The notes under the pieces: generated by a model
What the model saw: the letters and a program-made list of their open reading frames with translations, nothing else
What the model was told of the DNA's origin: nothing
Databases searched by the model: none
Assembly (NCBI GenBank): GCA_964442805.1
Contig: CAYUAM010000001.1
Location: forward strand, 1 to 25,412
DNA: 25,412 nucleotides
Origin: an uncultured Anaerolineales bacterium
Lineage (GTDB): Bacteria; Chloroflexota; Anaerolineae; UBA7937
Direction: 5' to 3'
Position numbers and translations under genes: made by a program
In this document: one piece after another, positions 3,995 to 25,412 of the stretch
Layout of the letters: each line of letters starts with the position of its first letter
How positions within the stretch are numbered: the stretch's first letter is position 1

Positions 3995-4052
3995 ACCACA
4001 TCCAGGAAAATGACCACGATTGACGCTCTGAAAAGGCTCGTCGAGCGATTTT

Positions 4053-4070
4053 TTTGGGAGCGCTCTCAAA
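4053..4070. promoter_or_regulatory. LacI-type operator 1 (CelR/CebR-box-like), overlapping predicted +1
   Basis: TTTGGGAGCGCTCTCAAA, 18-bp near-palindrome; core is one mismatch from TGGGAGCGCTCCCA. Confidence 0.8.
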
Positions 4071-4073
4071 ACT

Positions 4074-4102
4074 AGTATACCACAAACCGGAACGCTTGTC
4101 AA
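4074..4102 (-). promoter_or_regulatory. sigma70-type promoter of the lacI-ABC operon
   Basis: Minus strand TTGACA-17 bp-TATACT with extended -10 TG. Confidence 0.85.
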
Positions 4103-4109
4103 GAGTCTG

Positions 4110-8159: not shown

Positions 8160-8212
8160 CTAGGCTAGATATTCTGCTATAGATATTGCTAGAACCCGGA
8201 GAGGCGGCAATC

Positions 8213-9596: not shown

Positions 9597-9659
9597 ATCG
9601 AACGGAAAGAGCGTGGCTATAAAGGTCGGGATAGTTCTCCCTTCTCTAGGTGTAAGGGT

Positions 9660-10331
9660 ATGAGAAAACTTCTCTACATCCCCTTGATCCATGGCAGCGC
9701 AGACCTGGGCAGCGTGGCTTCGAGTGTGGATGAGAAGGGCTTAGCCATACATGGGGAGGAGAGATGGGAGGAACACAAGCGAACCATCTCCGGATTCTGG
9801 GATTCTATAGAGAGTTGTATGGATTCCCTAGACGTCACTGATTTCCAGATTTATCAGGATGGCCTAGCCGCCGATGGCTCCTTGGGCCAGAGGGTCGTAA
9901 AAGATACAGCCAGAAAGGGCAGCCGGAACTACCAAATAGTGGAGAGACTCATGGCTAGGGGGGCAGAGATAGTGAAGACCGAGGATATCTCCACGGTCCT
10001 CAAGGAGGTGGAACTCATCAAGAAGATAGCCCAATCCAAGTCAGTCCCGGGGCGATTGTTCGCAGCCCTGAAGTATGAACTGGCCAGGAAGAGGCTACTT
10101 GAGGAGAGAGACGAGTTCATAGCCAAGACCATCAACCATAGCCTGAAGCGCAACGGCATCCTCTTCATCGGCGCCTTCCACAATGTGATTCCTAAACTAG
10201 CCAGCGATATCGTCGTGGAGGAGGTCAAGGCCAAGGAGAAGGTGGAGGAGTATCAGAGGAGTTTCCTTCTCAGGGGGAAACAAGAAGGGGTGGAGGAACT
10301 GTCCAGATATCTGGTGGCTCCTGTGGAGTGA
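9660..10331 (+). CDS. Hypothetical protein between hsp20 and cdc48
   Basis: 223-aa ORF in operon orientation with codon style like its neighbours; motifs YIPLIHGSADLGS, IYQDGL, ILFIGAFH. Family not identified. Confidence 0.75.
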   Translation: MRKLLYIPLIHGSADLGSVASSVDEKGLAIHGEERWEEHKRTISGFWDSIESCMDSLDVTDFQIYQDGLAADGSLGQRVVKDTARKGSRNYQIVERLMARGAEIVKTEDISTVLKEVELIKKIAQSKSVPGRLFAALKYELARKRLLEERDEFIAKTINHSLKRNGILFIGAFHNVIPKLASDIVVEEVKAKEKVEEYQRSFLLRGKQEGVEELSRYLVAPVE

Positions 10332-10419
10332 TCTCCTTTTCTTGTTTGCTTAAAAGATGGATGGGAGGTGCGGGTATGCAAATGATGGGGATAACGGGAT
10401 GTGGAGGAGGGAGGTTCCC

Positions 10420-12591
10420 ATGACTAGGAAGGACAAAAAAGAAGAGGGGGTCCTGACTTTGCGGGTTGCAGAAGGGCAGAGCAAGGATGTTGGAAGGGGC
10501 ATTGCCCGCATCGACCCCCAGGATTTCGAGAGGATCGGGGCGGCGATCGGCGATATCGTCGCTATCACCGGGAAGAGAACGACCGTGGCCAAGATCATGC
10601 CTGCCTATCACGCCGACCGAGGAAAAGGCATCGTGCAGATCGACGGCATAATTCGAGAGAACGCTCAAGCCAGTCTAGACGAAAAGGTCCGTATTCACAA
10701 GGTTGATCACCAGATAGCCAAGCAGCTCACCTTGGCCCCTCTGGGCTCGGGGCGGACTCTGCCTCGAGGGTCGGATAGCCGCTACGTTGGAAGGTTGCTC
10801 GAAGGGCTAGTTATCACTGAAGGGGATCGGGTTCGCGTCAACCTCTTCGGTACCCGCTCCGTGGATTTCACCGTGACCGATACCTCTCCTGAGGGCATGG
10901 TTATGGTGGCAGCAGCCACGATCACCAAGATCGAGGGGGAAGGGGCGGAGAGGGAGCGGGGGCTGAAGGTCTCCTATGAGGATATTGGGGGGCTGGGCAA
11001 GGAGATTCACCGCATCCGAGAGATGATCGAGTTGCCATTGAAATACCCTGAGGTCTTCGATCGGTTGGGCATCGAAGCACCAAAGGGCGTCTTGCTACAT
11101 GGCCCTCCGGGCTGCGGCAAGACCCTTATCGCCCGCGCCGTGGCCTCGGAAACATCTGCTCATTTCTTTCCCGTCAACGGCCCGGAGATCATCCACAAGT
11201 TCTACGGTGAGAGCGAGGCGCACCTACGGGAGATCTTCGAGCAAGCGAGCCGCAATGCGCCGAGCATCATCTTCCTAGATGAGATCGACGCTATCGCTCC
11301 CAAACGGGAGGAGGTACATGGCGAGGTGGAGAAACGGGTGGTGGCCCAGCTTTTGGCCCTGATGGATGGCTTGAAGTCCCGAGGCGAAGTGATAGTCATC
11401 GGGGCCACCAACATCCCGAACTCTTTGGACTCTGCTCTACGTCGTCCAGGCCGCTTCGACCGGGAGATCACCATCAGCATCCCGGACAAGAATGGCCGTC
11501 TGGAGATATTGGAGATACACACTAGAGGAATGCCCCTTGCTGATGATGTGGATCTGGAAAGACTGGCCGAGATCACCCACGGCTTCGTGGGAGCTGACCT
11601 GGAGGCTTTGTGCCGCGAAGCGGCCATGATCACCTTGCGTCAACTGATGCCGGATATCGACTTCGCTAAGTCTCACATCCCCTACGAGCGGCTGCTGGAA
11701 TTAGAGGTGACCATGGACAATTTCCTGACCGCTCTAGGAGAGGTCGAACCATCGGCCATCCGTGAGGTCTTCACTGAGGTTCCCGATGTCAGATGGGAGG
11801 ACATTGGGGGCTTGGAGGAGGTCAAGGAGATACTGAAGGAAACTGTTGAATGGCCTCTCAAGTACCCTGAGCTCTTCGCACAGGCCAAGACCGCGCCGCC
11901 TAAAGGGATACTTCTGTACGGGCCGCCGGGCACAGGCAAGACGCTTTTGGCCAAAGGGGTAGCCAACGAAAGCGAAGTGAATTTCATCTCCGTCAAGGGC
12001 CCGGCGCTCATGTCTAAGTGGATGGGGGAGAGCGAAAAGGGGGTGCGTGAGGTATTTAAGAAGGCCCGGCAAGCAGCACCCTGTATCATCTTCTTCGACG
12101 AGATCGATGCCCTAGCCCCCATACGGGGCTATGGCGGCGGAGACTCCCATGTGGCTGAGCGGGTGGTCAGCCAGTTTTTGACGGAGATGGACGGCATTGA
12201 GGAACTGAAAGGGGTAATCGTCTTGGCCGCCACTAACCGTTTGGACATCATCGACCCAGCATTGTTACGTCCTGGCAGGTTCGATGTGCTCATCGAGTTG
12301 CCCCTCCCCGACCGTGAGGCCCGTGAGGCGATCTTCAAGATCCATACCAAGGACAAACCCCTGGCTTCCGATGTTGACCTGAGGATCTTGACGGATATGA
12401 CCGAGGGCTCAGTGGGAGCGGACATCGAATCGATCTGTCGCCAGGCCTCGATGTTAGCCATTCGAGAGTTTCTCAATGAGGAGGTCGACTCTAAATCGTA
12501 TGAGAGTTTTCAGATCACCATGCGACATTTCCGCCAGGCGATAGAAATGGCCGGGAAACTGGCCTCGCCGGGACCATTGACGAAGGGTTAG
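10420..12591 (+). CDS. cdc48: CDC48/p97/VAT-family double AAA+ ATPase
   Basis: ATG 10420 with RBS GGAGG. N-domain [18 protein letters not shown]; Walker A GPPGCGKT and GPPGTGKT; Walker B FLDEID and FFDEID; two RPGRFD arginine-finger motifs. Confidence 0.96.
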
Positions 12592-12617
12592 ACATAGGGA
12601 AGAGTTTGTGGTATAAT
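12589..12617 (+). promoter_or_regulatory. Strong sigma70-type promoter P1 at the end of cdc48
   Basis: TAGACA-17 bp-TATAAT with extended TG. Confidence 0.8.
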
Positions 12618-12623
12618 GTTATT

Positions 12624-12830
12624 GGTATTTCTTCCATTTTTGAGATTAGATATCTTGCTTGTTAGGGTCAGATCCTCGAGATCTAGTGAGGTCGATGAGA
12701 CAGCGTTGGTGTTGAGTGCGCCCCTTCCTGGAGGAAGGTGTCTACCCCAGCGATGACGACTCTCGCCAGGAAGGTCTTTTCGAGGGTCTGACGGAGTGAC
12801 CCCGTCGCAAAGACGGGGTCACTCATTTTT
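12624..12830 (+). ncRNA. Putative structured ncRNA or leader, unit 1 (unassigned family)
   Basis: Lies between promoter P1 and a terminator. 15-bp closing stem 12667-12681/12778-12792 plus nested stems; no credible ORF. Confidence 0.55.
12794..12830 (+). terminator. Intrinsic terminator
   Basis: Perfect 13-bp stem GAGTGACCCCGTC / GACGGGGTCACTC, then ATTTTT. Confidence 0.85.
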
Positions 12831-12933
12831 GGAACCGAAGGCCGTGTATGGGAGAGTGCGTTTTCTTAACCACTTCCGGGTCCGTTATCTTTCGCTGGGC
12901 ATTGGAATTTACGGAAAATTTACGCATAGCCCA

Positions 12934-12962
12934 TTGACACCTCAGTAAGAAGGTGGTAAGAT
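12934..12962 (+). promoter_or_regulatory. sigma70-type promoter P2
   Basis: TTGACA-17 bp-TAAGAT with extended TG; preceded by AATTTACG x2 at 11-bp period (12906-12924). Confidence 0.75.
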
Positions 12963-12968
12963 TATAGA

Positions 12969-13290
12969 TGAATTTGATGAATTTGAGGACTTCCTCTCAT
13001 GACAAAATAGACCCTCTGAAAGGGGAGGGGTGAAGCCAGGGGTGTAAGATGAAAGCAGGCTAGGGTAACCAGCCAGATTACCGCCGCGGGCTCGGCGGCG
13101 AAGAGGATGCTTCGTCAATCTCTTCTGGTGTGGTTGTCCTTCGGTTGGCTTTCTAGTGGGGGAGAGTGCTTCGTGTTAAGGAGTCTGACAAGTACCTCAT
13201 TGAATCTGTGCACTCCTTACTCGGTTAGCTCATTTTGCAGAGGTTTTGAGCCATCTTGACCTTATTGGGTTGAGATGGCTCTTTTTCTTT
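12969..13290 (+). ncRNA. Putative structured ncRNA or leader, unit 2 (unassigned family)
   Basis: Lies between promoter P2 and a terminator. Multibranch pairing: 12993-13010/13229-13243, 13032-13039/13145-13152, 13062-13077/13124-13140, 13177-13184/13212-13219. Confidence 0.55.
13248..13290 (+). terminator. Intrinsic terminator upstream of gvpA
   Basis: GAGCCATCTTGACC / GGTTGAGATGGCTC (14 bp with G-U pairs), then TTTTCTTT. Confidence 0.85.
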
Positions 13291-13507
13291 GAAAGCGGGG
13301 AGTAAAAGGAAAGGGCTGACCGGGGATCAGCCCTCCCGAGGAGAATCGGGCTAAACCATTGCTCAGCATTTGCCAGGCCGGTAATGGATCACCCATCGGC
13401 TATACTCAGGAGGTGTGATTATCCTCCTGGTGCCCTCTCCCCAGGAATTATTCTATCACAGTTTAGTCTAAAAGTAAAGGATTACGGACGAAAGGAGGTG
13501 AGAAGAG

Positions 13508-13720
13508 GTGGCAGTGGAGAAGGCTATCGCGTCCTCGAGCCTGGTCGAAGTTGTCGACCGGGTCTTGGACAAGGGGATCGTGATTGATGCTTGGGCCAGG
13601 ATCTCCCTGGTGGGCATCGAGATACTAGCCCTCGAGGCCAGGGTCGTGGTCGCTGGGGTAGACACCTTCCTCAAGTACGCCGAGGCCATCGGCTTGACGC
13701 CGCTGGCTGCACCGGCCTAG
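13508..13720 (+). CDS. gvpA: Major gas vesicle structural protein GvpA, copy 1
   Basis: 70 aa, [56 protein letters not shown]; GTG start with RBS AGGAGGTG. Confidence 0.98.
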
Positions 13721-13797
13721 AACCTTCCTGGGGCTTGAGGGATCACAAATTTACCCAGGAGCCTTCGCTCCTAGGGGAGGAAAGGAGGTGAGAAGAA

Positions 13798-14010
13798 ATG
13801 GCAGTGGAGAAGGCTATCGGGTCCTCGAGCCTGGTCGAAGTTATCGACCGGGTCTTGGACAAGGGGATCGTGATCGATGCTTGGGCCAGGATCTCCCTGG
13901 TGGGCATCGAGATACTAGCCCTCGAGGCCAGGGTCGTGGTCGCTGGGGTAGACACCTTCCTCAAGTACGCTGAAGCCATCGGCTTAACCCCCTTGGCTGC
14001 TCCGGCGTAG
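13798..14010 (+). CDS. gvpA: Major gas vesicle structural protein GvpA, copy 2
   Basis: 68/70 aa identical to copy 1; the RBS region is duplicated as well. Confidence 0.98.
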
Positions 14011-14038
14011 GGGTAGGGAGCAAGCATCAGATCCCCAA

Positions 14039-14119
14039 CTTGCGGGCGGCGTCGAGGGCCGCCAGGTCAGCCCGGTGGTGCTCGATGACAGAGGCCGGCC
14101 TCGACGTCCGCCTCGCAGG
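14039..14119 (+). other. Long GC-rich stem-loop after gvpA2
   Basis: Nested pairs CTTGCG/CGCAGG, GGCGG/CCGCC, CGTCGAGG/CCTCGACG. Confidence 0.65.
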
Positions 14120-14181
14120 TGCAAGATTGCGAAGTAGAGAATCCCCCAGGGGACGAGGAGATATATGAAAGAGGTGAAAAG

Positions 14182-14730
14182 ATGCTTTTCGCAGAAGAGA
14201 TGCAAGAGTTGGCTGAAGGGATCGTGGCCTCGAAGCGCAGCCGCATAGAGGGGATAGCGAACCTAAAGAATGAGACCCAAAATCAGTTGGCCGGCTACAA
14301 GAGCGATCGCCAAGCCATGGCCCAGGAGTTACACGCCGGACTTGAGGCGGATAAGGCGGCTCTGATGGCTGATACCGCCACTCTGATGAAGGAACTAGGT
14401 GAACTTGACGCAGCCCGCCAGGCAGAGGTGAGGGTTGAGTTGGCCGAGGCCAGGTCTCAATTGAAGAGCGACACCGCTGCTCTGATGAAGGGACTGGGCC
14501 GAGGGACCAAGGCCCGTAGGAAGGAAGTGAAGGCCGAGTTGGCCGAGGCCAGATCTCAATTGAAGAGCGAGATCGGTGCTTTGATGAGGGAACTGAAGGC
14601 GGAGATGAAGGCGGCTCGGAGGGCCTGGCAGCAAGGGCTGCGGGCAGCGCTACGAGAGAGTAAACCGAGGCCACCGGCACGGCGAACCTCTCCACGTAAA
14701 GCCGCATCGCCGAAAGAACCGGCTGCATGA
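14182..14730 (+). CDS. gvpC: GvpC-like protein with 33-aa helical repeats
   Basis: ATG 14182 with RBS GAGGTG. Three 33-aa repeats (DNA repeat at 14437 and 14536, 99 bp apart). Lies between gvpA and gvpN. Confidence 0.8.
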   Translation: MLFAEEMQELAEGIVASKRSRIEGIANLKNETQNQLAGYKSDRQAMAQELHAGLEADKAALMADTATLMKELGELDAARQAEVRVELAEARSQLKSDTAALMKGLGRGTKARRKEVKAELAEARSQLKSEIGALMRELKAEMKAARRAWQQGLRAALRESKPRPPARRTSPRKAASPKEPAA

Positions 14731-15016
14731 GTTGAGGAGCGGAGGGGTCAGAGGTAGCGTGACCGCTTCTGTTGCCTCCTCCTTCTGGCGCTGTAGGGAG
14801 CGTTGGCTGTCCAAAGGCTGAACGCCATTCTGAGTGTCCCTCTCCTTCACTAGTGGCTTATGTTGAAGAGAATGGAGCCACCCAGCGGGTCTAGCCACCT
14901 CCCTGCAGCGCTCGGGCCCAGAGGTCTTGCCTCGAGGCCCGGGAAATCTAAGAGACGGCAAGTTAGTGTTGAGCTCTCCAGCACTCTAGAGATTAGCAAA
15001 GAAAGGGAGAAGAGTA

Positions 15017-16009
15017 ATGAGCAAAAGAGTTGAAGATTTGAGAAAGGGGGCCTTCATTGAGGAGGGGAGATTGAACGAGTTGAGGGAGCAGAGGCTAACG
15101 GAGGCGGTTCCCGGGCGACCCCCAACTCCTATAATAGAGGTCTCACCACGTTCAGGCTTCGTGGAGACCCCCTTCATCACCAGCATAACCGAACGCGCCC
15201 TAACCTACGTGGAGGGGGGCTTCCCCGTCCATTTTCGGGGACCGACGGGGTGTGGCAAGACGACCCTGGCTATCCACCTGGCCACCAAGATCGGTCGCCC
15301 CGTGATGCTCCTGGTGGGGGACGAGGAGTTTACCACCTCCGACCTAGTGGGCGGGGAGCATGGCTACCATCGTAAGCGGATCCACGACCAGTTCATCCAT
15401 TCAGTCCTGAAGACGGAGGACCGCCTCCATTACCGTTGGGTCGATAGCCAGCTCACGGTAGCCTGCCAAGAAGGGTACACCCTGGTCTACGACGAGTTCA
15501 GCCGCTCCAGGCCGGAGGCCAATAACGTCTTGTTGCCGGTGCTCGAGGAGCGGATACTGATCCTCCCCACCATCAGGAGCACTGAGGGGTATCTGCGGAT
15601 TCACCCTGACTTCACGGCCATCTTCACCTCTAACCCCATGGAATACGCTGGGGTGCATGCTAGCCAGCAGGCGCTGCTGGATCGCATGATCACCATTGAC
15701 ATCACCGACTTCGATCGGGAGACGGAACTGGCCATCACCCAGGCTCGAACGGGCGTCACCGCCGAGGAGGCGGGGAAGATAGTGGATCTGGTCAGGGGCT
15801 TCAGAAAGGCGACGAATTCCGATTCTACCCCCACGGTCAGAAGTTGCATCATGATCGGCAAGATCTTGGCCTGCCAGAACGCCAACGGGGGGAACCTCAC
15901 TTTCGGCCAGATAGTGACTGACGTTTTGGCGCGAGAGCTCAACCCTGATGGCAAGACCGACAAGGAGAGACGAAAGATACTACTCGGTCTCATCAAGAAG
16001 AGCGAGTAG
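15017..16009 (+). CDS. gvpN: Gas vesicle AAA+ ATPase GvpN
   Basis: GFPVHFRGPTGCGKTTLA, YTLVYDEFSRSRPEANNVLL, FTSNPMEYAGVH...ALLDR. Confidence 0.95.
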   Translation: MSKRVEDLRKGAFIEEGRLNELREQRLTEAVPGRPPTPIIEVSPRSGFVETPFITSITERALTYVEGGFPVHFRGPTGCGKTTLAIHLATKIGRPVMLLVGDEEFTTSDLVGGEHGYHRKRIHDQFIHSVLKTEDRLHYRWVDSQLTVACQEGYTLVYDEFSRSRPEANNVLLPVLEERILILPTIRSTEGYLRIHPDFTAIFTSNPMEYAGVHASQQALLDRMITIDITDFDRETELAITQARTGVTAEEAGKIVDLVRGFRKATNSDSTPTVRSCIMIGKILACQNANGGNLTFGQIVTDVLARELNPDGKTDKERRKILLGLIKKSE

Positions 16010-16035
16010 AGCATATCGATAAGGGGAGGAAAACA

Positions 16036-16323
16036 GTGCAGAAACAGCGGGCGTTACGAACCTTTAGACATTGCAAGGGCATGGGTAATATTCGACAGCA
16101 GCGGTCGATCCGCCACTCTATTGGGGAGGGAAGCGTTTTCCAGAAACTAGACCGCATAGCTCGGGAGGAAGAGATACTGCTCAGTAGGGCCAGACTCTGG
16201 GCCTTAAACCTGAGGCGAGAGGAAGAACAGATCGCTAACCTCGACCAGCAAAGAGATGCGATGGTAAGAGGCCTGGAACTCCTTATTAGGGAAGAGGAGG
16301 AGTTAACCTATCCCCCTCGCTAG
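16036..16323 (+). CDS. Small coiled-coil protein, GvpV-like
   Basis: 95 aa directly after gvpN. N-terminal ALRTF motif and coiled-coil C-half resemble GvpV of Serratia-type clusters as I recall them. Confidence 0.55.
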   Translation: MQKQRALRTFRHCKGMGNIRQQRSIRHSIGEGSVFQKLDRIAREEEILLSRARLWALNLRREEEQIANLDQQRDAMVRGLELLIREEEELTYPPR

Positions 16324-16450
16324 GGCGGCGTAGCGCGGATTATTTGGGGTGGTGTTCGATAAAGATGAGCGGGCACCTTCTGGGGGCTTGACCATAACAG
16401 GGGGTGTCCAAGAGGGAGCATCTCCCAATCGATTGGACGGCGTCGATTAT

Positions 16451-16492
16451 GCCTGCCTGTGTCCTGAGAGGTTGCCCGGGCAGGCTTTTTTC
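16451..16492 (+). terminator. Probable intrinsic terminator upstream of hsp20-dnaK
   Basis: GCCTGCC / GGCAGGC stem followed by T6. Confidence 0.6.
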
Positions 16493-16533
16493 AAATAACC
16501 AGGGGGTTCACCGCCCGAACGAGGAGGAAAGGG

Positions 16534-17094
16534 ATGACAAGGGATAAGGAGAAGAAGCGGGATGAAATGGAGGCCATAGACCTGGGCGGTCTCTTCAAGG
16601 GGATCGGCGATCTCATCGAGTTGGTCTCAGGGATGGTGGAGAAGGTGGATCTAGCCAACCTCGATGAAGAGACCCTCTCTAGGCTGCGGCGAGCCAGCCA
16701 GAGCGGGGTCGTAGGAGCACCGAGAAGCGTCTACGGCGTCTCGATACAGCGAGGAGTGGGTGGCATCTCCAGGGTGCAGCCCTTCGGCAATATCCGCCGC
16801 ACCGAGAGAGGCCCTGTCGTTGAGGAGGTGAGGGAGCCCCTCACCGATCTCTTCGAGGAGGATGATCTACTCTTGGTCGTTGCTGAGTTGCCCGGCGTGG
16901 AGGAGAAGGAGATACGGATCGAAATCGAGGACGACACTCTCAAATTCTCCTCCACCGGAAAGAGGAAATACGCCAAGGGACTTCCCCTTCCTTTTCCTGT
17001 CGACGAGAGCACCATGGAGACCACCTACAAGAACGGCATCTTGGAGATCAAGTTGGGCAAGAGAAGCGAGCCGGATGAGGAGAAAACCGAGTGA
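16534..17094 (+). CDS. hsp20: Hsp20/alpha-crystallin protein, paralog of 9057-9596
   Basis: [14 protein letters not shown]...[27 protein letters not shown]...AELPGV...YKNGILE; its stop overlaps the dnaK start (GTGA). Confidence 0.9.
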
Positions 17095-18923
17095 GTAAGG
17101 CGATCGGCATCGACCTGGGAACCACGAATTCGGTGATGGCGGTGATGGAGGCGGGCAGGCCCATGGTCATCCCCAATACGGAGGGCAGCCGCCTCCTCCC
17201 TTCAGTGGTAGCCATCGACGGAAAAGGCGAACGGCTGGTGGGGGAGGTGGCCAAATGGCAAGCCATCATCAATCCCCACAATACGGTCTTCTCCATTAAA
17301 CGTTTCATGGGGCGAAAATTATCCGATGCTTCTGTGCAATATGACAAGGCGCTGGTGCCCTACGAATTGACCGCTGCCGACAACGGCGATCTCCGGATAG
17401 TCATCAAAGGCCGGGGGTACCCACCGCCGGAGATTTCGGCCATGATTCTGCAGAAGTTGAAACGCGATGCCGAGATGTACCTGGGCGAGCCGGTCACTCG
17501 GGCGGTGATCACCGTGCCAGCCTACTTTAACGATAGCCAACGCCAGGCAACTAAAGAGGCGGGGCGAATAGCCGGGCTCGAGGTATTGCGCATCATCAAC
17601 GAGCCCACCGCCTCGGCTCTAGCCTATGATTTTCCCCACGAGAAGCGGGAGACCATCGCCGTCTACGACCTGGGCGGGGGAACCTTCGATATCTCCGTCC
17701 TAGATCTGAGCGCTGGCGTCTTCGAAGTCCTCTCCACCAGCGGCGATACCCATCTGGGTGGGGATGACCTAGACAGAAGGACCATCGAATGGCTCTGCGA
17801 TGGTTTCTTGGAGGAGGAGGACATCGACCTGCGAGAGGACAGGGTAGCCTTGCAAAGACTCAGGGTAGCAGCAGAGCAGGCCAAGATCGAACTCTCGGCC
17901 GCGCAGCAGGCCCAGATCGATCTACCCTTCATTGCTAGAGATGGCAATGACCCCAAGCATCTCAATGTCACCCTCAGCCGCTCGAAATTAGAGCAGTTGG
18001 TGGGCGATCTGATCGAGAGGACCATCGAGCCCTGCTGGCAAGCGTTGGCGGATGCTGGTCTCAGGGTTTCTGATGTGGATCATGTGATCCTGGTGGGCGG
18101 TCAGACGAGGATGCCTCTCGTGGTGCGTACCGTTCGTGAACTCTTCGGGAAGGAGCCCCACCGGGATATCAACCCCGATGAGGTAGTTGCGCTGGGAGCC
18201 GGTATCCAAGCCGGGGTTTTGACCGGCGATGTGAAAGGGGTGCTCCTCATCGATGTCACCCCCTTGACGCTGGGCATAGAGACCTCGGGCGGCGTGGCCA
18301 GCCCCCTCATCCCGCGCAACACCACCATCCCCACTCGCAGGAGCCAGGTCTTCACTACTGCCAGGGATGACCAGAGTAGTGTGGAGATACACGTGATGCA
18401 GGGCGAGCGGGCCATGGCCGTGGAGAATATGACCCTGGGTCGCTTTGTCTTGGAAGGTATCCACCCCGCGCCGCGCGGCGAGCCCAAGATCGAGGTCACT
18501 TTCCAGATCGACGCCGACGGCATCTTGCAGGTTACTGCTCAGGACCAGGCCACAGGTAAGGAACAGCAGATCACCGTCGCCGCTTCCAGCGGCCTCTCAG
18601 AGAAGGAGATCAAGTGCATGGTCAAGGAGGCGAAGGAGTACGCCGAGCGGGACAGAGAGCGACGCGAGGAGATCGAGATCCTCAACCGAGCCGACAGGCT
18701 GGCCTACCGCGCCGAGAAGACGTTGCAGCGGTATGGCGATGACGTGCCGCCAGCCGTCAGGAGGGAGATGAAGAGCAAGGTAGCGGCTCTGCGCGAGGCG
18801 CTGAAGGAAGGAGAGATCCCTGCCGTGAAGAACGCCTGGCAAGGGCTAATTGAGACGGCAGAGAAGATCGCGGCTTGGCTTGATGAGGAGCCGATGGAAA
18901 TAGCACCGCCTCTAGATAGATGA
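17091..18923 (+). CDS. dnaK: Hsp70 chaperone DnaK (cluster-specific paralog)
   Basis: [31 protein letters not shown], linker [12 protein letters not shown]; 610 aa with a short C-tail; no grpE or dnaJ adjacent. Confidence 0.97.
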
Positions 18924-18939
18924 GATGGAGGATGAGGGC

Positions 18940-20019
18940 ATGGCAGAGGAGGCCAAGTATATTTACGGAGTGATCCAGAACGGAGGGAGAAGGACCTTCG
19001 GCTCTATTGGTATAGGTGGACGGGGAGATGAAGTGTATGTGGTCCCCTGTCAGGATTTGGCTGCGGTGGTCAGCGATTGCCCAGCCATAGATTACAAGGC
19101 GGTAAAGGAGAAGGAGAAGATAGTCCGTGATCTGGCGGCACATCAACGCGTGACCGAAGAGGTCATGAAGCACTGTTCCATCCTACCCATGAAGTTCGGC
19201 ACCATGGTGGAGGAGGAGAAGGAGGTGGAAAGCGTATTGCGTCAAGGGTATTTCAACCTCAAGGAGGCTCAGGCCGCCTTCCAGGACAAGGTTGAGGTAG
19301 AAGTGGTGGTCACCTGGGACCTCACTTCCGTCTTCCAGGAAGTTGGCAACGAGGAGCCCATCGCCAAATTGAGAGCCAAGACGGAGGGTAGACCGGGCTT
19401 AAGAGGACTAAACGATAGGATCAACCTGGGCAAGATAGTATATGAATCTCTATCTCGCAGGCGGGAAGATCATCAAAGAGAGATAGTTGAAGTTCTCGCT
19501 AACTGTTCCATCGATAGGCAAAAGAACGCTCTCATGGATGATAGTTTTGTGATGAACGTGGCCTTTCTCATCGATAAGGAGCGACAGGATGAGTTCGATG
19601 AGAGGCTTGAGGAGTTGGATAAGGGAATGGGTGGCGCTTTGAACTTCCGACGCATCGGGCCCCTGCCTCCCTATAGTTTTGCCACCATCGAGGTGCGGCC
19701 TATGACTCACCAAGAGGTCAAGGGGGCCAGGGAGTTATTGGGCCTGGGTGAGAAGGCCAGCCTAGGGGAAATAAAGGAGGCCTACTATGACCTGGCTCAG
19801 GAGTGTCACCCTGATGCCCAGCCGGACGGCAATGCAGGAGAGCGCTTTACCCAAATCGCCCAGGCCTATGAGTTGCTAAAGAGCTACTGTTTGGGACAGG
19901 CAGCGGCCCAAGGAATCACCTCTAAGAAGGCAGCTGCCGAGTATTCTTGCTCCTTTACTCCGGCGGCCATTGAGGAAGGCGTTCTGGTCACCATCAAGCG
20001 TTTGGGGAGAGAGACCTGA
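18940..20019 (+). CDS. gvpF: GvpF/GvpL-family protein with C-terminal J-domain
   Basis: KYIYGVI...LPMKFGT...VEVEV...GPLPPYSF, then ELLGLGEKASLGEIKEAYYDLAQECHPD...FTQIAQAYELL with intact HPD at 19807-19815. Confidence 0.88.
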   Translation: MAEEAKYIYGVIQNGGRRTFGSIGIGGRGDEVYVVPCQDLAAVVSDCPAIDYKAVKEKEKIVRDLAAHQRVTEEVMKHCSILPMKFGTMVEEEKEVESVLRQGYFNLKEAQAAFQDKVEVEVVVTWDLTSVFQEVGNEEPIAKLRAKTEGRPGLRGLNDRINLGKIVYESLSRRREDHQREIVEVLANCSIDRQKNALMDDSFVMNVAFLIDKERQDEFDERLEELDKGMGGALNFRRIGPLPPYSFATIEVRPMTHQEVKGARELLGLGEKASLGEIKEAYYDLAQECHPDAQPDGNAGERFTQIAQAYELLKSYCLGQAAAQGITSKKAAAEYSCSFTPAAIEEGVLVTIKRLGRET

Positions 20020-20834
20020 TGAGCCACGGCTCCGATGACGGGAGAATGATATATCTGTATTGCTTAACCCAGAGCCATGGGGAGGCCCCTTTTCGCCTAT
20101 CGGTCGAGGGGATCGGCGGCCGGGACGGTGAGGTCTACAGCATCCCCTTCCTCGATCTGGCCATGGTAGCCAGCGACTCGCCTCAAGATGAATATGAGAC
20201 TACTCGCCACAATACTGTGCACCATCAATTAGTTTGCGAGGAGGTCCTGAATCACGGCTTCGCTGTTCTCCCGGTCAGATTCGGGACGGTATGCAAGCCC
20301 ACTCGGGGCAAGAGTAGCGCCGAGGAGAAGATCAAGAAGTTGCTCAGGCGAAGGTATGGCGAGTTTCATTCCCTGCTGGGGGAGATGGAGAACAAAGTCG
20401 AGCTGGGGCTGAAAGTCTTTTGGAAGAAGGAGCGTCTCTTCCAAGAGATCGCGGCTGAAAACCAAAATATACGAGAGATGCGGGATCGCATCGCCGCCAA
20501 CCTCTCGGGGGCATTGTCGACCCACTACGAGAGACTGCAACTGGGTACCAGGGTCTATAACGAGATAGAGAATAGGAGGGACATTGAGGCTAGGAGGCTG
20601 GCGCGGGCTCTCAGTCCCCTGGCCGAGAGGTACGAAACCAACAAAGTCCTCACCGATGTGATGATCCTCAACGCTGCCTTCCTGGTTCATCACTCCCGAG
20701 TGGAGGAATTTGATGCCAAAGTCAACGAATTAGATAGGAGATATAGTGATAGGATGACCTTCAAGTATGTGGGCCCCGTGCCTCCCTTTAACTTTGTGGA
20801 ACTGGTCGTGCACTGGGAAGAAGACGAGGAGTGA
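20019..20834 (+). CDS. gvpF: GvpF/GvpL-family protein
   Basis: IYLYC...VLPVRFGT...VELGLKV...LNAAFLV...YVGPVPPFNFV; TGATG overlap with the previous gene. Confidence 0.92.
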   Translation: MSHGSDDGRMIYLYCLTQSHGEAPFRLSVEGIGGRDGEVYSIPFLDLAMVASDSPQDEYETTRHNTVHHQLVCEEVLNHGFAVLPVRFGTVCKPTRGKSSAEEKIKKLLRRRYGEFHSLLGEMENKVELGLKVFWKKERLFQEIAAENQNIREMRDRIAANLSGALSTHYERLQLGTRVYNEIENRRDIEARRLARALSPLAERYETNKVLTDVMILNAAFLVHHSRVEEFDAKVNELDRRYSDRMTFKYVGPVPPFNFVELVVHWEEDEE

Positions 20835-20888
20835 CGGCGTTGCATAGAAAGTGCCCTCCAGCGAGGCGTTCAATAGGAGGTGAGAATC

Positions 20889-20982
20889 ATGGCCAAAAAC
20901 GGCAGTGAAAAAGAGGAGATGGGGCACCGTACAGTGTGCTTATTGTCGGGGCAAGGACGCCTTCGGACTCCTACACGGCTAG
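20889..20982 (+). pseudogene. Remnant of a CxxCxG (DnaJ-type zinc finger) protein
   Basis: A strong RBS (AGGAGGTG) and ATG 20889 are out of frame with GTVQCAYCRGKDAFGLLHG*, which stops at 20982. Confidence 0.45.
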
Positions 20983-21037
20983 TCACAACAGCCGCAAAGG
21001 CGGGGGCAACGTAGCCGAAGGAGAAGGGAATGTAGCC

Positions 21038-21373
21038 ATGTTCCTCATATCATGGTTGGAACACCAATTGCTTAAGACGGTGGGTAAGGTGCTGGCTGTG
21101 CCAGTGACTGTACCGATCAAATCTGCAAGTTGGCTGCTCGAGCAGATCCATGGAGAAGCAGAGGCAGAGCAACTCAATGAGGACCGCGTCAGGCAGCAGT
21201 TGATGGAGTTGGAGATTCGCTACGAGGCGGAAGAGATCGGGAAGGAGGAGTTCCAGGCCCAAGAGGAGGAGTTGCTGGAGCGGTTGAACGCCATTCGCGA
21301 GCGCAAGAAAGATGAGCAGTTTGAGAAAGACGAGACCTGGTGGCGCAGGGTATTCTCCGAGGGGTTCAAGTAG
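21038..21373 (+). CDS. gvpG: Gas vesicle protein GvpG
   Basis: ATG 21038 with RBS AAGGAG; PIKSASWLLEQIHGEAEAEQLNEDRVRQQLMELE...EEFQAQEEELLERL. Confidence 0.88.
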   Translation: MFLISWLEHQLLKTVGKVLAVPVTVPIKSASWLLEQIHGEAEAEQLNEDRVRQQLMELEIRYEAEEIGKEEFQAQEEELLERLNAIRERKKDEQFEKDETWWRRVFSEGFK

Positions 21374-21471
21374 CAGCGAAAGGGATCGAACTTCCCATTT
21401 CACTTAGGGCCTTGACATCAGGGATCAAGTTCCCGATCAGGGAGAGATTCGACAGGGAGGGAGGATAGAGG

Positions 21472-21870
21472 ATGGTTAAGCAAAAAAGGGCAGAGGGCTC
21501 AGTCCTAGAGCAGATCGCAGCCACTCGCAGAGTGGCGATACTGAAGGACTCTATCAAGCAGGAGGAAGACGGGCATTACAGCGAAGCGATCGATGGATAC
21601 CGACAGATCATCGACCAACATCATGGCACCCCAGAGGAAAAGGAGGCCAGAGAAAGGATGCTGGACCTGGCCCGCCTCTTCCAGAGCAAAGGGCAAAGTT
21701 ATCGAGCGAGGCACCTTTTCTGGCTCTTGGAGCAACTCTATACACCTCAGAGATTCAAGAACATAAAGGAATTACGCCGGGCGCGAGTTAAAGAGATACT
21801 GGATGAGATCCACGCCGAAAAGCGTGCTGAGGAGGAGAGAAGGGCTAGAGTAGAAGCTGAAGGCTTGTAG
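21472..21870 (+). CDS. TPR-like helical protein with charged C-tail
   Basis: YSEAIDGYRQIIDQHHGTPEEKEARERMLDLARLFQSKGQSYRARHLF resembles a TPR pair; RBS GGAGG. Confidence 0.65.
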   Translation: MVKQKRAEGSVLEQIAATRRVAILKDSIKQEEDGHYSEAIDGYRQIIDQHHGTPEEKEARERMLDLARLFQSKGQSYRARHLFWLLEQLYTPQRFKNIKELRRARVKEILDEIHAEKRAEEERRARVEAEGL

Positions 21871-22052
21871 GGGTTTTGGTCGTCGGGCGCGATCCCCTAT
21901 GCCATGTCTAGACCTAATAGCGATCTTGGGCTAGGCTACCGAGGCCTTTCAACCACCGTAGGTTTTGGCGAGCCCCGAGAAATCGAGTCTGAGCAGCAAA
22001 GCCCTGGGGCATCGCTCATAGACAAAGACTCTTATGGAAGGAGAGAGGCAAA

Positions 22053-22409
22053 TTGGCCAAACAATATGTGGAGCCGGACCGACGTGGGAGCCTCATCGAT
22101 GTTATAGACACCATCCTGGACAAGGGCTTGGTGATCAACGCCGACATCACCGTCTCGGTAGTGGGTGTAGAGCTCTTGGGCATCAAAATAAGGGCCGCCT
22201 TGGCCTCCTTTGAGACCGCAGCCAGACACGGCCTGGAGTTCCCTTCAGGGACCAACATACAAACGCCAGCCTGGGCCGAGGCCCAAATCTCCAAGGAAGA
22301 ATGTCCCCAGTGCAGCAAACGGGTGGCAGCGGAGGAGTTGCTGGAGGTGGGCTGTCCTTGGTGTGGTTGGGTTAGCGCTCGGGCTGAAGCCAAGGCCCTA
22401 GAGGCCTAA
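22053..22409 (+). CDS. gvpJ: GvpJ-like (GvpA family) protein with C-terminal zinc ribbon
   Basis: [44 protein letters not shown], then CPQC-x13-CPWCGW; TTG start. Confidence 0.85.
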
Positions 22410-22484
22410 GAAGCGACATCACTAGCCAGATGTCACTGAGCGCCTCTACCGAGGCTCTTATGTTCGTTAGCAAGAGGCGATGAG

Positions 22485-22778
22485 ATGGTATTTATGGAGC
22501 CCTTCTGGATCCTGATAGATCTGATCTCGGGAGAGGCCAGGAAAGAGGACGAGAGGAGGGGGGACCCGAGATACGTGAAATGTCTCCACTGCGGCGGCCT
22601 GGTGTTGAAAAGCGAGGTTAGAAGGAGAGGAGGTTGCTACCTCTGTGGCTGGGTACCGGGGGCTGAAACGGTACGAAAAGAGGAAAGGGCTTTGAGGGTG
22701 AGATGCCCCCAATGTGGCCGCCCGGTGCTGAAAAGCGAACTCATCAAAAGGGGGTGTTATCTCTGCGGCTGGAGGTGA
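22485..22778 (+). CDS. Small tandem zinc-ribbon protein
   Basis: CLHC-x14-CYLCGW and CPQC-x13-CYLCGW. Confidence 0.75.
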   Translation: MVFMEPFWILIDLISGEARKEDERRGDPRYVKCLHCGGLVLKSEVRRRGGCYLCGWVPGAETVRKEERALRVRCPQCGRPVLKSELIKRGCYLCGWR

Positions 22779-22849
22779 CATCTCCCGAATAGGGAGTGGT
22801 CGCCAACCGGCGGCGCTCTCACCACGCAGAATTAGGTTAAGGGACGACA

Positions 22850-23941
22850 TTGGAAGCAAAAACCGTTCTACTGCCATCGAGTTACAGCAAGGCTACCCTG
22901 GTAGACCTACTGGATAGGGTCTTGGAGAAAGGGCTGGTGATTAACGCCGATATCATCATCTCCGTGGCCGGCATACCGTTGTTAGGGGTTAACCTGAGAG
23001 CGGCTCTGGCGGGCATGGAGACCATGCTGGAATATGGGCTGATGCGCGAGTGGGACGAGCGCACCCGTGAATGGGAGCGGAAACATATCGAAAAGAGGGG
23101 ACCGCACCTATTGGCTGAAGAGGAGATCCTCTTACTGATGTATGGGGCCCATTGGCATAGCAAAGGCATCTACCGCGCTTGGCGGCCTGGACACCTCTAC
23201 CTCACCAACAAGAGGCTATTTCTGTTTCGCAGCGAGCCTGGGGAGATGCTCTTTGAGACCCCCCTGGAGAAGATCAAAGCCTTGGCTATCCGGAGAGAGA
23301 CTCACTTCACGGGCATCGAAAGAGATATGGTTTACGTCGCTCTCAACCCTGAAAGGCTAGCCTACCTCTGCGCTGAGAGGCCAAGGGAACTTCAAGAGGC
23401 CATTCGCAGGAGAATAGAGGCCTTAGGCCTTCCCTTGGATGAGAGCCCTGGGCTTTCTCCCCTCGATGCGGAGATAGATGGGCTCCTTGGGGAAGATGAG
23501 ATAACCGCTGAAGCCAAGATGTGGTATCAACTCCCCCCCTCTGGCATCAGGGGAGAGAGATGGGGACCAGGTCGGTTGTATCTGACCAATAAGCGTCTCT
23601 TTTGGCGGTGCCATGAGGATCGCAAGATACCATTCGAGATCCCCCTCGCCGAGATAAGGGGGGCCAGGATGGAGAGGAGGGATCTAGGAGGGCTGATAAG
23701 GGAAAGGCCTGTTCTTTGCCTCTCTTACGGAAACCCCTTGGGCGCGAAAAGGGCTCTCTTTGTGGGGGATGATCTGACCGAGTGGGAGAAGGCCATCAAC
23801 CGCATCGTTGGGGAGATGGAGAGCTGTCCTCGTTGTGAACGCCGTGCTCCTACAAGACGGTTGTTAGAGAGGGGATGTCCTGACTGTGGCTGGGTGAGTC
23901 CCTGCCGGAGAGACGAAGCCTCGCCCCCGTTGGCGAGATAG
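22850..23941 (+). CDS. GvpJ-like domain fused to two GRAM/PH-like repeats and a zinc ribbon
   Basis: [44 protein letters not shown]; two repeats W(R/G)PG(H/R)LYLTNKRLF...FE(T/I)PL(E/A)(K/E)I; CPRC-x13-CPDCGW. Confidence 0.82.
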   Translation: MEAKTVLLPSSYSKATLVDLLDRVLEKGLVINADIIISVAGIPLLGVNLRAALAGMETMLEYGLMREWDERTREWERKHIEKRGPHLLAEEEILLLMYGAHWHSKGIYRAWRPGHLYLTNKRLFLFRSEPGEMLFETPLEKIKALAIRRETHFTGIERDMVYVALNPERLAYLCAERPRELQEAIRRRIEALGLPLDESPGLSPLDAEIDGLLGEDEITAEAKMWYQLPPSGIRGERWGPGRLYLTNKRLFWRCHEDRKIPFEIPLAEIRGARMERRDLGGLIRERPVLCLSYGNPLGAKRALFVGDDLTEWEKAINRIVGEMESCPRCERRAPTRRLLERGCPDCGWVSPCRRDEASPPLAR

Positions 23942-23961
23942 ATGGGGCAGGAGGGGGAATC

Positions 23962-24294
23962 ATGGCTGGCATAGTCGACCTCGACGAAGATAATTTCAAA
24001 CACGGGATCTTGGGACTGGTCATCACTCTGGTGGAGATAATAAGGGATACCCTCAAGTTGCAGGCTTTCAAGCGGATAGAGGGTGGGAGCCTCACTGAGG
24101 AAGAGATCGACAGGTTAGGACGAGCGCTTTCAGATCTCGATATGGCCCTTGATCAGATAAAGGAGGAGCAAGGGATAGCCGACACGGTTCAAAGCGTGAG
24201 AGATGGCTTGGATGAGATCGTGGACGAGATCTTAGATAAGATGGTAAACCCCCTGGGGTGGGCGGAGGAGTTCGAAAAGGAGGTGCAAAGATAA
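23962..24294 (+). CDS. gvpK: Gas vesicle protein GvpK-like
   Basis: LDEDNFKHGILGLVITLVEIIRDTLKLQAFKRIEGGSLTEEEIDRLGRAL. Confidence 0.9.
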   Translation: MAGIVDLDEDNFKHGILGLVITLVEIIRDTLKLQAFKRIEGGSLTEEEIDRLGRALSDLDMALDQIKEEQGIADTVQSVRDGLDEIVDEILDKMVNPLGWAEEFEKEVQR

Positions 24295-24471
24295 AGTGGC
24301 CCGGACCTTCCTCCTCTCCTCGAAGGCGAGCAAATCCTCCTCCACCAGCAAAGGGGTTATCTCTCCAGAGGCTCCTGGAGATTGGGCTACCTCTACCTGA
24401 CGGATTAAAGGCTCCTCTTTCGTCGGAGGAAAGAGGTGCGGGGTGTGATGAGGGCTGATGATGTCGTTTAA
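24291..24471 (+). pseudogene. GRAM/PH-like single-domain pseudogene
   Basis: From 24295 reads SGPDLPPLLEGEQILLHQQRGYLSRGSWRLGYLYLTD*RLLF, with TAA at 24406-24408 where the paralog at 22850 has K (LYLTNKRLF). RBS AGGAGGTG is followed by ATA rather than ATG. Confidence 0.7.
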
Positions 24472-25021
24472 GGAGATCGGGGAAGAGGATCTGAAGAGGG
24501 TCGTCGAGGCTTTGGACCCGGCAAGTGCCCAGATGGTCTGGTATCTCTGGGAGCATAGACATGCCAAGATAGAAGAGTTAAGAGAGGTGTTGGGCGAATC
24601 CTCTCACATGAACGTCTTGGTGCGAATCAAGGAGACGATAAACCCCACAGCCTGCAAGATAGTAGGCAGGCCGATCTTGGTCTTTGAGAAGGGGAGGATA
24701 GACCGCTCTAGCGGGGAGAGGATCCTTCATAGTTGGTGGTTGAACAGAGATTCTGAGAGGAGGCAGATAGAGGGGGAGAAGTTGGTGGATATCTTTGACG
24801 AAGGGGACCATATCTTACTCATCGTGGAACTGGTCGGTTTTGATGAAAAAGGTATCCAATTGGCCGTAGAGGATGAGACGCTTGTGTTGAAGGCGGAAGC
24901 CCCTGGCCGAAGTGTGCAGGAGGAGATACCCCTTCCTCCCCAGGTTGATGGCCAAAGGTTTGAGATGACCTATCGCAATAACATGTTGCAAGTCAGGTTT
25001 GAGAAGGAGCAAGCAAGATGA
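24458..25021 (+). CDS. Winged-helix-like N-domain fused to an Hsp20/alpha-crystallin domain
   Basis: N-half LDPASAQMVWYLWEHRHAKIEELREVLG; C-half LVDIFDEGDHILLIVELVG...EEIPLP...YRNNMLQVRF. Confidence 0.78.
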   Translation: MMSFKEIGEEDLKRVVEALDPASAQMVWYLWEHRHAKIEELREVLGESSHMNVLVRIKETINPTACKIVGRPILVFEKGRIDRSSGERILHSWWLNRDSERRQIEGEKLVDIFDEGDHILLIVELVGFDEKGIQLAVEDETLVLKAEAPGRSVQEEIPLPPQVDGQRFEMTYRNNMLQVRFEKEQAR

Positions 25022-25412
25022 ATACCCCTTTAGAGAGAGAGCGACAAGCCAGGTATATATACGGCGTTATTCCCCGCCTAGATAAAGAGAGCCTTGGCCC
25101 AATCGGCATCAGGGGAAATACGGTCTACCCCATCTCCCATAGGGAGTTAAGCGCCCTGGTTCACGACTGCTCGCCGGAACCGTATCGTGGAGATGAGGAG
25201 GAGGTCAAAGAATGGGTAGCGGCTCATGCCGCGGTAGTCGATGCTGCCTGGGCAGAGGCTGAAACCGTGTTGCCCATGAGTTTCGATGTCATCGTCAAGG
25301 GCGATGAGGAAAGGAGCGCTGAGGAAAACGTGCGAAAGTGGCTGGAGGAGGGGTATGCGACGCTGAAAGCCAAATTGGAGGAGTTGAGAGGTAAGGTTGA
25401 GCTGGGCGTTCA
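25018..25412 (+). CDS. gvpL: GvpL/GvpF-family protein, third paralog (3' truncated by window)
   Basis: Not in the ORF track. ATGA overlap at 25018; MNTPLERERQARYIYGVIP...LSALVHDC...AHAAVVD...VLPMSFD...LRGKVELGV. Confidence 0.88.
   Translation, partial: MNTPLERERQARYIYGVIPRLDKESLGPIGIRGNTVYPISHRELSALVHDCSPEPYRGDEEEVKEWVAAHAAVVDAAWAEAETVLPMSFDVIVKGDEERSAEENVRKWLEEGYATLKAKLEELRGKVELGV

Follow-up and report, generated by a model that had tools for sequence, protein, structure and literature searches.

We analyzed a stretch of 25,412 nucleotides (the window) from an uncultured Anaerolineales bacterium (assembly GCA_964442805.1, contig CAYUAM010000001.1) and found that one gene of its gas-vesicle (gvp) cluster, referred to here as the target, encodes a minor gas-vesicle shell paralogue in which a GvpM-type domain is followed by two PH-like domains and a putative zinc ribbon. 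We are highly confident of this assignment, and likewise that the target is a core member of the cluster and that its PH module is exclusive to the target family. The open reading frame (ORF) of 363 residues begins with a TTG start codon, lies ∼8 nucleotides downstream of an AGG-rich stretch and has exactly the boundaries given in a first-pass annotation made from the sequence alone. That annotation described a GvpA-family domain fused to two tandem PH/GRAM-like domains, a description borne out by the Pfam matches, by conserved full-length homologues that match the target in length and architecture, and by the setting in a gvp cluster.

The GvpM-type domain is the most conserved region of the protein. 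Residues 16 to 54 match the Pfam family Gas_vesicle (PF00741; E = 1.6e-16; 60.6 bits against a cutoff of 25) over profile positions 1 to 39 of 39, and a profile of the target family matches the solved GvpA structures 8gbs (E = 3.6e-10) and 7r1c (E = 1.7e-8). The first-pass annotation had called the N terminus GvpJ-like. We rejected this subtype in favor of GvpM, since the NCBIfam model halo_gas_GvpM scored 93.9 bits (profile positions 3 to 67 of 67) against 56.1 bits for GvpJ and 41.0 for GvpA, and since the best Halobacterium match in a tblastn search of plasmids with the first 88 residues fell on gvpM, adjoining gvpL, at 48 to 51% identity. The neighboring gene at 22053-22409 shows the reverse NCBIfam pattern (GvpJ, 95 bits; GvpM, 51 bits). 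Because the score of the target stays below the curated cutoff of 109 bits for halo_gas_GvpM, a haloarchaea-specific "exception" model, we file the protein as GvpM-type and not as a certified GvpM orthologue.

Within this domain, the residues that hold GvpA subunits together side by side are not retained. In the GvpA2 shell of Bacillus megaterium, neighbors along a rib are zipped together by Glu43-Arg31-Glu38 (PMC9994262). Positions 31, 38 and 43 are kept as R/E/E in the GvpA of the window and read T/E/K in the GvpJ-type neighbor and I/P/N in the target, whose P43 and N48 are invariant across its family. Since the lateral R31, E38 and E43 of GvpA are replaced by I/P/N, the target is unlikely to be a regular rib subunit. 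The shell domain is joined to the first PH-like domain (PH1) by a connecting helix in which W68, D69, R73, W75 and E76 are invariant or nearly so.

Both PH-like domains are recognizable in sequence. The Pfam family GRAM (PF02893) matched two stretches, the best at residues 85 to 146 (29.8 bits; cutoff, 23.6), and Vps36 GLUE (PF11605) matched residues 239 to 273 (29.0 bits; cutoff, 24.1). Because these two clan members overlap, the domains can safely be assigned to the PH-like clan only. Membership in the bacterial PH family bPH_3 (PF14470) was rejected, as the Pfam scan of the target gave 15.4 bits, under the cutoff of 23. The first-pass annotation had noticed two internal repeats with the core G-x-LYLTNKRLF, and these proved to be homologous: the core starts at G114 in PH1 (GRAM-type) and at G241 in the second domain (PH2; GLUE/GRAM-type), and PH2 is an internal duplicate of PH1, residues ∼86 to 190 aligning with residues ∼211 to 320 at a Smith-Waterman score of 95, compared with 28.4 ± 4.6 (maximum, 46) in 500 shuffles. 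Between the domains lies an acidic linker of 23 residues with a mean net charge across the family of -4.9.

Structure prediction gave a consistent picture for the individual domains. AlphaFold2 was run with 42 aligned full-length relatives (mean predicted local distance difference test [pLDDT] score, 71) and again with only the last 284 residues (mean pLDDT, 81). In both runs it predicted two seven-stranded modules, each ending in a C-terminal helix (pLDDT of ∼80 to 93), followed by a small ribbon; both modules thus have the predicted seven-stranded β sandwich and capping C-terminal helix of a PH fold. The top Foldseek matches in the PDB were PH-fold proteins, mostly with tandem PH domains (probability, 0.99 to 1.00), with BBS5 as the best (E = 8.5e-9), and among the others were the FARP1/2 PH-PH pair, centaurin alpha-1, Dok7, IRS-1 PH-PTB, Rtt106, FACT Spt16M/Pob3M and archaeal CheF. 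The family sequence profile reaches BBS5 (E = 0.005) and the dynamin PH domain (E = 0.015) as well. The PH/GRAM-like character surmised for the repeats in the first pass is therefore also what AlphaFold2 and Foldseek return. Whole-chain template modeling (TM) scores were low (0.2 to 0.39), and the predicted TM score (pTM) was 0.47 to 0.54; on this account, we regard the fold of each PH domain as well supported, but not the way in which the domains are oriented to each other.

The first-pass annotation overlooked a cysteine motif at the C terminus, C326-x2-C329-x13-C343-x2-C346-G-W (CPRC-x13-CPDC-GWVSP). The four cysteines and W348 are invariant in 42 sequences, and the spacing C-x2-C-x13-C-x2-C-G-W is identical in 75/75 ribbon-bearing targets and 60/60 GvpJ partners from related loci (locus counts here and below refer to the 84 related loci that we examined). 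AlphaFold2 models the region as two short strands (pLDDT of ∼80 to 85), and the Pfam scan of the target returned no specific zinc-ribbon family at cutoff. The ribbon appears to be specific to gas vesicles and is putatively zinc binding. With 13 or 14 residues between the cysteine pairs, the motif occurs four times in three adjacent genes of the window (22053-22409, 22485-22778 and 23825-23893). The first of these encodes the GvpJ-type paralogue, and a GvpJ partner with the ribbon (GvpJ-Zn; 115 to 135 residues) was present in almost every related locus with enough flanking sequence; the second encodes a free-standing protein with two ribbons, a homologue of which was found in 37 loci.

The target family proved to be widely distributed. 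A search at the protein level gave 905 clusters (90% identity), and we judged architecture on the 120 best, which are mostly ∼350 to 400 residues long, resemble the target in length and architecture and are named in their sources only "gas vesicle protein" or "GvpJ." In species-representative genomes, tblastn yielded 300 matching stretches at ∼40 to 84% identity, the best 80 of which were kept as loci. These 300 stretches come from methanogen-related archaea and from bacteria of more than 10 phyla. Carriers belong to the Chloroflexota, Actinomycetota, Atribacterota, Aerophobetes, Bacteroidales, Desulfobacterota, Nitrospirota, Planctomycetota, Verrucomicrobiota, Ignavibacteria, Acidobacteria and Bacillota, and the archaea were assigned to the Methanophagales, Methanocellales and Methanomicrobia. 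Among the carriers in culture are Lachnotalea glycerini DSM 28816, Anaerobacterium chartisolvens DSM 27016, Marinisporobacter balticus DSM 102940, Desulfosporosinus fructosivorans and Clostridium sp. ZS2-4. The closest relatives of the target come from uncultured Anaerolineales (81 to 84% identity), and the module is ∼43 to 45% identical between bacteria and archaea. Some tblastn matches were longer (∼1.4 to 1.6 kb), which is best explained by joining with the adjacent GvpJ-Zn gene, as the ORFs there are of normal length. DNA near-identical to the target is present in sequencing runs of soil, wetland, sediment, groundwater and wastewater metagenomes; only one metatranscriptome holds 5% of the sampled words.

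All 84 loci are gvp clusters, and in each the target homologue is the sole GvpM-type ORF; no separate short GvpM was found in any of them. A 72-residue ORF in a Bacteroidales locus (L017; 20751-20969) was considered as a short GvpM and rejected, since on inspection it looks GvpS-like. It occurs besides GvpA, GvpJ-Zn and GvpM-PH-PH-Zn, so that S and M types can coexist. The gene directly upstream of the target homologue encodes GvpL/F in 54 loci, and the one directly downstream encodes Hsp70 (31 loci), Cdc48 (11 loci), a small heat shock protein (sHSP)-like protein (10 loci) or GvpK (9 loci). The commonest order, GvpJ-Zn .. GvpK - GvpL - target - Hsp70, reproduces the gvpJ-K-L-M order of the haloarchaeal p-vac operon. 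The combination of GvpA and GRAM domains singled out in the first pass is thus conserved in many phyla and confined, across the loci examined, to gvp clusters. We conclude that the target family marks a distinct, chaperone-rich type of gvp cluster that is widespread in anaerobes.

The PH-PH-Zn module is essentially exclusive to this family. A profile of residues 80 to 363 found only 254 matches at an E value of ≤1e-3 among 1.84 billion representative proteins, and nearly all of the 150 best start at residue ∼75 to 90, after the GvpM domain, or are fragments. No free-standing PH-PH-Zn protein, as gene fission would yield, was found among these 150 best of 254 matches; those starting at residue 1 turned out to be metagenomic fragments or a fusion of PH-PH to a protein with winged helix-turn-helix (wHTH) and sHSP-like parts. 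Variants of the architecture do occur. Some relatives of ∼180 to 200 residues combine GvpM with a single PH domain, and one of them (P0203) is a complete gene at a cluster end, right after Hsp70. The ribbon is absent in ∼8 loci, and high-GC forms, probably actinobacterial, have a degenerate second domain. Two relatives are GvpK-GvpM-PH-PH fusions (P0155 and P0163). In a third protein, P0232, PH-PH is fused to a homologue of the wHTH-sHSP-like protein of the window (37% identity; E = 1e-41), and its gene comes right after that of a canonical family member (locus L085). A module of its own is carried by some metagenomic wHTH-sHSP-like relatives, namely, P0232 and P0223. These domain fusions point to GvpK and the wHTH-sHSP-like protein as candidate partners.

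As to function, we give an even chance to a mechanism in which the target is a low-abundance, shell-inserting nucleation subunit whose ∼32-kDa module, turned toward the cytoplasm, serves to dock assembly factors or chaperones and blocks regular polymerization by steric hindrance. The N-terminal domain, without the R31/E38/E43 lateral zipper of GvpA and with the invariant P43 and N48 instead, would insert into the nascent shell at a nonlattice position, be it the nucleus, the cone apex or a seam. The chain would leave the GvpA fold after helix α2, on the GvpC-binding side, and because of this exit point the ∼290-residue PH-PH-Zn module should face the cytoplasm. Judged by the general size of PH domains, a module of 290 residues is too large for a footprint of 12 × 49 Å. 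Such an area (∼12 × 49 Å of wall) is what each GvpA occupies at a lateral spacing of 12 Å and a pitch of 48.8 Å, GvpA having a coil-α-β-β-α fold with a hydrophobic luminal face and GvpC bound on its exterior (PMC9994262). Since the module exceeds the footprint of GvpA, the target presumably cannot form regular ribs and should stay substoichiometric. A module too large for every subunit to carry speaks for sparse or terminal incorporation, which fits GvpJ, GvpM and GvpS being putative nucleation factors that are not found in intact vesicles (PMC9994262). Nucleation, one of the roles suggested in the first-pass annotation, also agrees with the GvpM-type identity and with the J-K-L-M gene position.

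The exposed module may further act as a docking platform for the products of neighboring genes, i.e., GvpK, GvpL/F, the wHTH-sHSP-like protein and Hsp70 or Cdc48, and the zinc ribbon common to GvpJ and the target would give both minor paralogues a common handle. That the module docks proteins is suggested by the fusions to GvpK and the sHSP-like protein, by the fixed GvpL/F-Hsp70-Cdc48 neighborhood, by the ribbon shared with GvpJ and by the binding of haloarchaeal GvpM to both GvpL and GvpJ (PMC8716928). The haloarchaeal protein is essential for vesicle formation (PMC8716928). A more far-reaching version, which we put forward only tentatively and consider doubtful, would make the module the hub of a chaperone-driven assembly route that recruits Hsp70, the J-domain GvpL, Cdc48 and sHSPs to a single nucleation or extension point, with the ribbons on GvpJ and on the free double-ribbon protein forming the other half of the hub.

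Several points weigh against the nucleation and docking mechanism. The target family is known here from sequence and predicted structure alone, and our literature search found no paper linking the cultured carriers to gas vesicles. AlphaFold2 gave the N-terminal domain the order α-β-β-α (helix 17 to 27, strands 36 to 39 and 42 to 45, helix 49 to 61), but at a pLDDT of <50 for residues 1 to 50; we would expect such values for a subunit whose fold is stabilized only inside the shell lattice. At the pTM given above (0.47 to 0.54), the relative orientation of the modeled domains is uncertain. Adjacency to chaperone genes is no proof of physical contact, and the steric argument presupposes a module unable to fan out on its linker. 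Since ∼8 loci lack the ribbon and single-PH relatives exist, neither the ribbon nor the second PH domain seems to be strictly required. The fusions are rare, and P0155 sits on a contig of 1.5 kb. Finally, the order in the window itself is J, Zn-Zn, target, K, sHSP-like, L and not J-K-L-M.

Other functions of the exposed module have to be weighed against this one. The first-pass annotation had proposed that it tethers vesicles; in that case the PH/GRAM-like domains would bind lipids and anchor vesicles at the cytoplasmic membrane or the pole via the shell-embedded GvpM domain. The nearest relatives in sequence and fold (GRAM, Vps36 GLUE, BBS5, centaurin and dynamin PH) are indeed mostly lipid or membrane binders, and basic residues are conserved in strands β2-β3 (R112, K121, R122, K223, R249 and K259), but these lysines and arginines sit in the LYLTNKRL strand, a structural core motif of GRAM-type folds. 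Moreover, both PH domains are near-neutral, with charges that vary widely across the family (+0.5 ± 2.7 for PH1 and -1.1 ± 3.3 for PH2), the module has been conserved in both bacteria and archaea despite their different membrane lipids, and many of the PH-fold matches, such as Rtt106, FACT and CheF, bind proteins and not lipids. All of the fusion and neighborhood evidence leads to Gvp proteins and chaperones, and none of it leads to membrane proteins. We thus find no specific support for tethering or lipid binding, a role that is possible but unlikely and less supported than protein docking by a nucleation subunit.

Quite unlikely, in our estimate, is a role as a vesicle-vesicle organizer, in which exposed PH-PH-Zn modules would self-associate and cluster or space vesicles by analogy to GvpU of Bacillus megaterium. 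The module is predicted, from the GvpA fold, to lie on the shell exterior, the clustering of vesicles by surface proteins has a precedent in GvpU (bioRxiv 10.1101/2023.06.01.543273), and homotypic PH-PH contacts would be in keeping with those loci whose downstream sHSP-like protein bears a second PH-PH module. However, as the sole GvpM-type gene of its cluster the target must first fill the essential GvpM role, a substoichiometric protein would be a poor cross-linker, and nothing in the target resembles the long disordered, phase-separating region of GvpU, its only low-complexity segment being the 23-residue acidic linker. It is also improbable that the module is only a passive solubility handle and polymerization cap, that is, that without any specific partner it keeps an aggregation-prone GvpM domain soluble until Hsp70 and the J-domain GvpL deliver it, its bulk then limiting the copies in the shell and so setting the number of nuclei or closing the cone. 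The steric mismatch with the 12 × 49 Å lattice cell applies here too, the clusters are unusually chaperone rich, single-PH and ribbonless variants exist, and haloarchaeal GvpA, GvpJ and GvpM are hydrophobic, and fragments of them were needed to exclude unspecific aggregation (PMC8716928). This possibility overlaps with the docking model; it is disfavored by the near-invariance, across phyla, of residues of surface type (W111, W225, W238, W252, W312, E91 and E217) and of the ribbon, which is more than a passive tag needs, and by the retention of the same ribbon on GvpJ and as a free protein. Docking by a nucleation subunit therefore remains the mechanism that we prefer.

The window contains much of the cluster to which the target belongs (Table 1), beginning with a GvpH-like sHSP, the Cdc48-type AAA+ protein, two gvpA copies, a 33-residue-repeat protein, GvpN, an sHSP and Hsp70, continuing with the GvpL/F-DnaJ J-domain fusion, GvpF, GvpG, an ORF without assignment, GvpJ-Zn and the double-ribbon protein, and ending with the target, GvpK, the wHTH-sHSP-like protein and a third GvpL/F gene. 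The window contains no GvpM-type ORF besides the target. The wHTH-sHSP-like protein has a winged-helix-like N-terminal region and an sHSP-like C-terminal domain and is conserved in 71 loci. The pairing of Hsp70 with the GvpL/F-DnaJ fusion recurs in loci of other phyla (L001, L085 and L087), which suggests that Hsp70 is recruited to gas-vesicle assembly. A Cdc48 homologue occurs in 41 loci, often as the next gene after the target homologue.

Table 1. Features of the target gene and of the surrounding gas-vesicle cluster, in window coordinates
Feature	Position	Strand	Basis or remark
Whole target gene (GvpM-type domain, helix, PH1, acidic linker, PH2, putative zinc ribbon)	22850..23941	+	ORF, Pfam, full-length homologues
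GvpA-family domain, GvpM subtype, residues 9-73	22874..23068	+	Pfam, NCBIfam, PDB GvpA 8gbs/7r1c, plasmid gvpM, alignments
Connecting helix, residues 64-84, MREWDERTREWERKH	23039..23101	+	Alignment, predicted secondary structure
PH-like domain 1, residues 85-192	23102..23425	+	Pfam GRAM, AlphaFold2 pLDDT ∼85-93, Foldseek
Acidic interdomain linker, residues 193-215	23426..23494	+	Charge, lower pLDDT
PH-like domain 2, residues 216-322	23495..23815	+	Pfam Vps36 GLUE, repeat score, AlphaFold2, dynamin PH and BBS5 profile matches
Putative C-terminal zinc ribbon, residues 323-352 (motif 23825-23893)	23816..23905	+	Conserved Cys spacing in family
GvpJ-type partner paralogue with the same ribbon, 118 residues	22053..22409	+	NCBIfam GvpJ, 95 bits
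Free-standing double zinc-ribbon protein, 97 residues	22485..22778	+	Motif, homologue in 37/84 loci
Gas-vesicle cluster	9057..25412	+	Pfam, NCBIfam, ORF survey
Cdc48/VAT-type double AAA+ ATPase with CDC48 N-domain	10357-12591	+	Inside gvp cluster
Tandem gvpA copies, ∼96% amino acid identity	13508-13720, 13798-14010	+	Within gvp cluster
33-residue-repeat ORF	14119-14730	+	Directly after the two gvpA copies
Hsp70	17091-18923	+	Precedes GvpL/F-DnaJ fusion
GvpL/F fused to DnaJ J-domain	18925-20019	+	Immediately after Hsp70
GvpK	23962..24294	+	Pfam; fused to GvpM-PH-PH in rare relatives
wHTH and sHSP-like protein	24458..25021	+	Pfam
Third GvpL/F-type gene	25045-25412	+	Runs off window end; cluster incomplete in window

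Some other regions of the window deserve mention. The ORF at 14119-14730 has a 33-residue (3 × 11) periodicity at the protein level, e.g., ELAEARSQLKSDTAALMKGLGRGTKARRKEVKA repeated twice, together with a subthreshold apolipoprotein match, and Tandem Repeats Finder detected no DNA-level tandem repeat in it; it could be a GvpC-like outer-surface protein. Ahead of the gvpA copies, ∼900 bp (12600-13500) contain no convincing ORF, and a weak GvpA-like remnant lies at 12707-12766 on the minus strand (E = 0.001). Five ORFs within the cluster or next to it could be assigned to no family (7201-7800, 8186-9034, 9660-10331, 16036-16323 and 21472-21870), among which 9660-10331 has a homologue in 21 related loci, 21472-21870 has one in 10, and 7201-7800 shows a weak match to archaeal Hsp20. 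The left end of the window (1059-5124, minus strand) encodes a family 5 solute-binding protein and a LacI-type regulator, unrelated to gas vesicles.

Databases already label proteins of this family "gas vesicle protein," and their Pfam domains are precomputed. What appears to be new is a GvpM-type protein extended by a PH-PH-Zn part specific to its family, which marks a chaperone-rich gvp cluster type of anaerobes: our literature search found no paper in which GRAM or PH domains, or this ribbon, occur on a GvpA-family protein, and it turned up no description of the architecture in connection with zinc, Hsp70 or Chloroflexi. The field has yet to establish how gas vesicles are nucleated (PMC9994262) and what role is played by the essential minor paralogues GvpJ, GvpM and GvpS, which are tiny, hydrophobic and scarce and hence hard to locate. 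The target family, which may help to show how gas vesicles are started, amounts to a naturally "tagged" GvpM in cultivable organisms, so that where a nucleation subunit sits, and with which partners, becomes directly testable; its large, folded, soluble module could be seen by cryo-electron tomography or immunolabeling and could serve as bait for the nucleation complex. If the hub version were true, this ∼32-kDa natural label would be the first to reveal where a GvpM-type subunit sits in the vesicle. The chaperone-rich cluster type should also be of interest to groups that mine gvp clusters for acoustic reporter genes.

Compared with known systems, the module resembles several without coinciding with any of them. 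It passes the Pfam cutoffs of both GRAM and Vps36 GLUE, and BBS5, its best profile and Foldseek match, likewise has two PH-like domains in tandem. The characterized proteins of these groups are, however, eukaryotic and act at membranes, whereas the target module is prokaryotic and confined to gas-vesicle proteins; no lipid- or ubiquitin-binding motif was confirmed in it, and at whole-chain TM scores of 0.2 to 0.39 the interdomain geometry is either unshared or unreliably predicted for the target. Rtt106, FACT Spt16M/Pob3M and archaeal CheF are matched by Foldseek with high probability (0.99 to 1.00; E = 2e-6 to 2e-4), and their PH folds hold protein clients, as proposed for the target. In their case a sequence relationship to the target is undetectable and the clients are unrelated (histones and CheY/archaellum), so that the resemblance is one of fold and proposed logic only. 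With GvpC and GvpU the module would share its place on the vesicle exterior, the side to which GvpC binds (PMC9994262) and the proposed location of GvpU, but those are separate proteins on the finished shell, whereas the surface module of the target is covalently part of a shell-type subunit.

The closest known counterpart is GvpM of haloarchaea. The N-terminal 73 residues of the target fit the GvpM profile end to end and are, at 48 to 51% identity, close to the plasmid-encoded gvpM of Halobacterium salinarum. Haloarchaeal GvpM is nevertheless short, ∼84 residues as implied by the fragment M60-84 (PMC8716928), and free of extra domains, whereas the target has 290 further residues comprising two PH-like domains and the putative zinc ribbon, for a total of 363. 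The clusters that host target-type genes differ, too, in also encoding Hsp70, GvpL-DnaJ and Cdc48. Even so, in most related loci, though not in the window, the target homologue comes after GvpK and GvpL in the manner of gvpJ-K-L-M, and like haloarchaeal GvpM the target is the single GvpM-type gene of its cluster.

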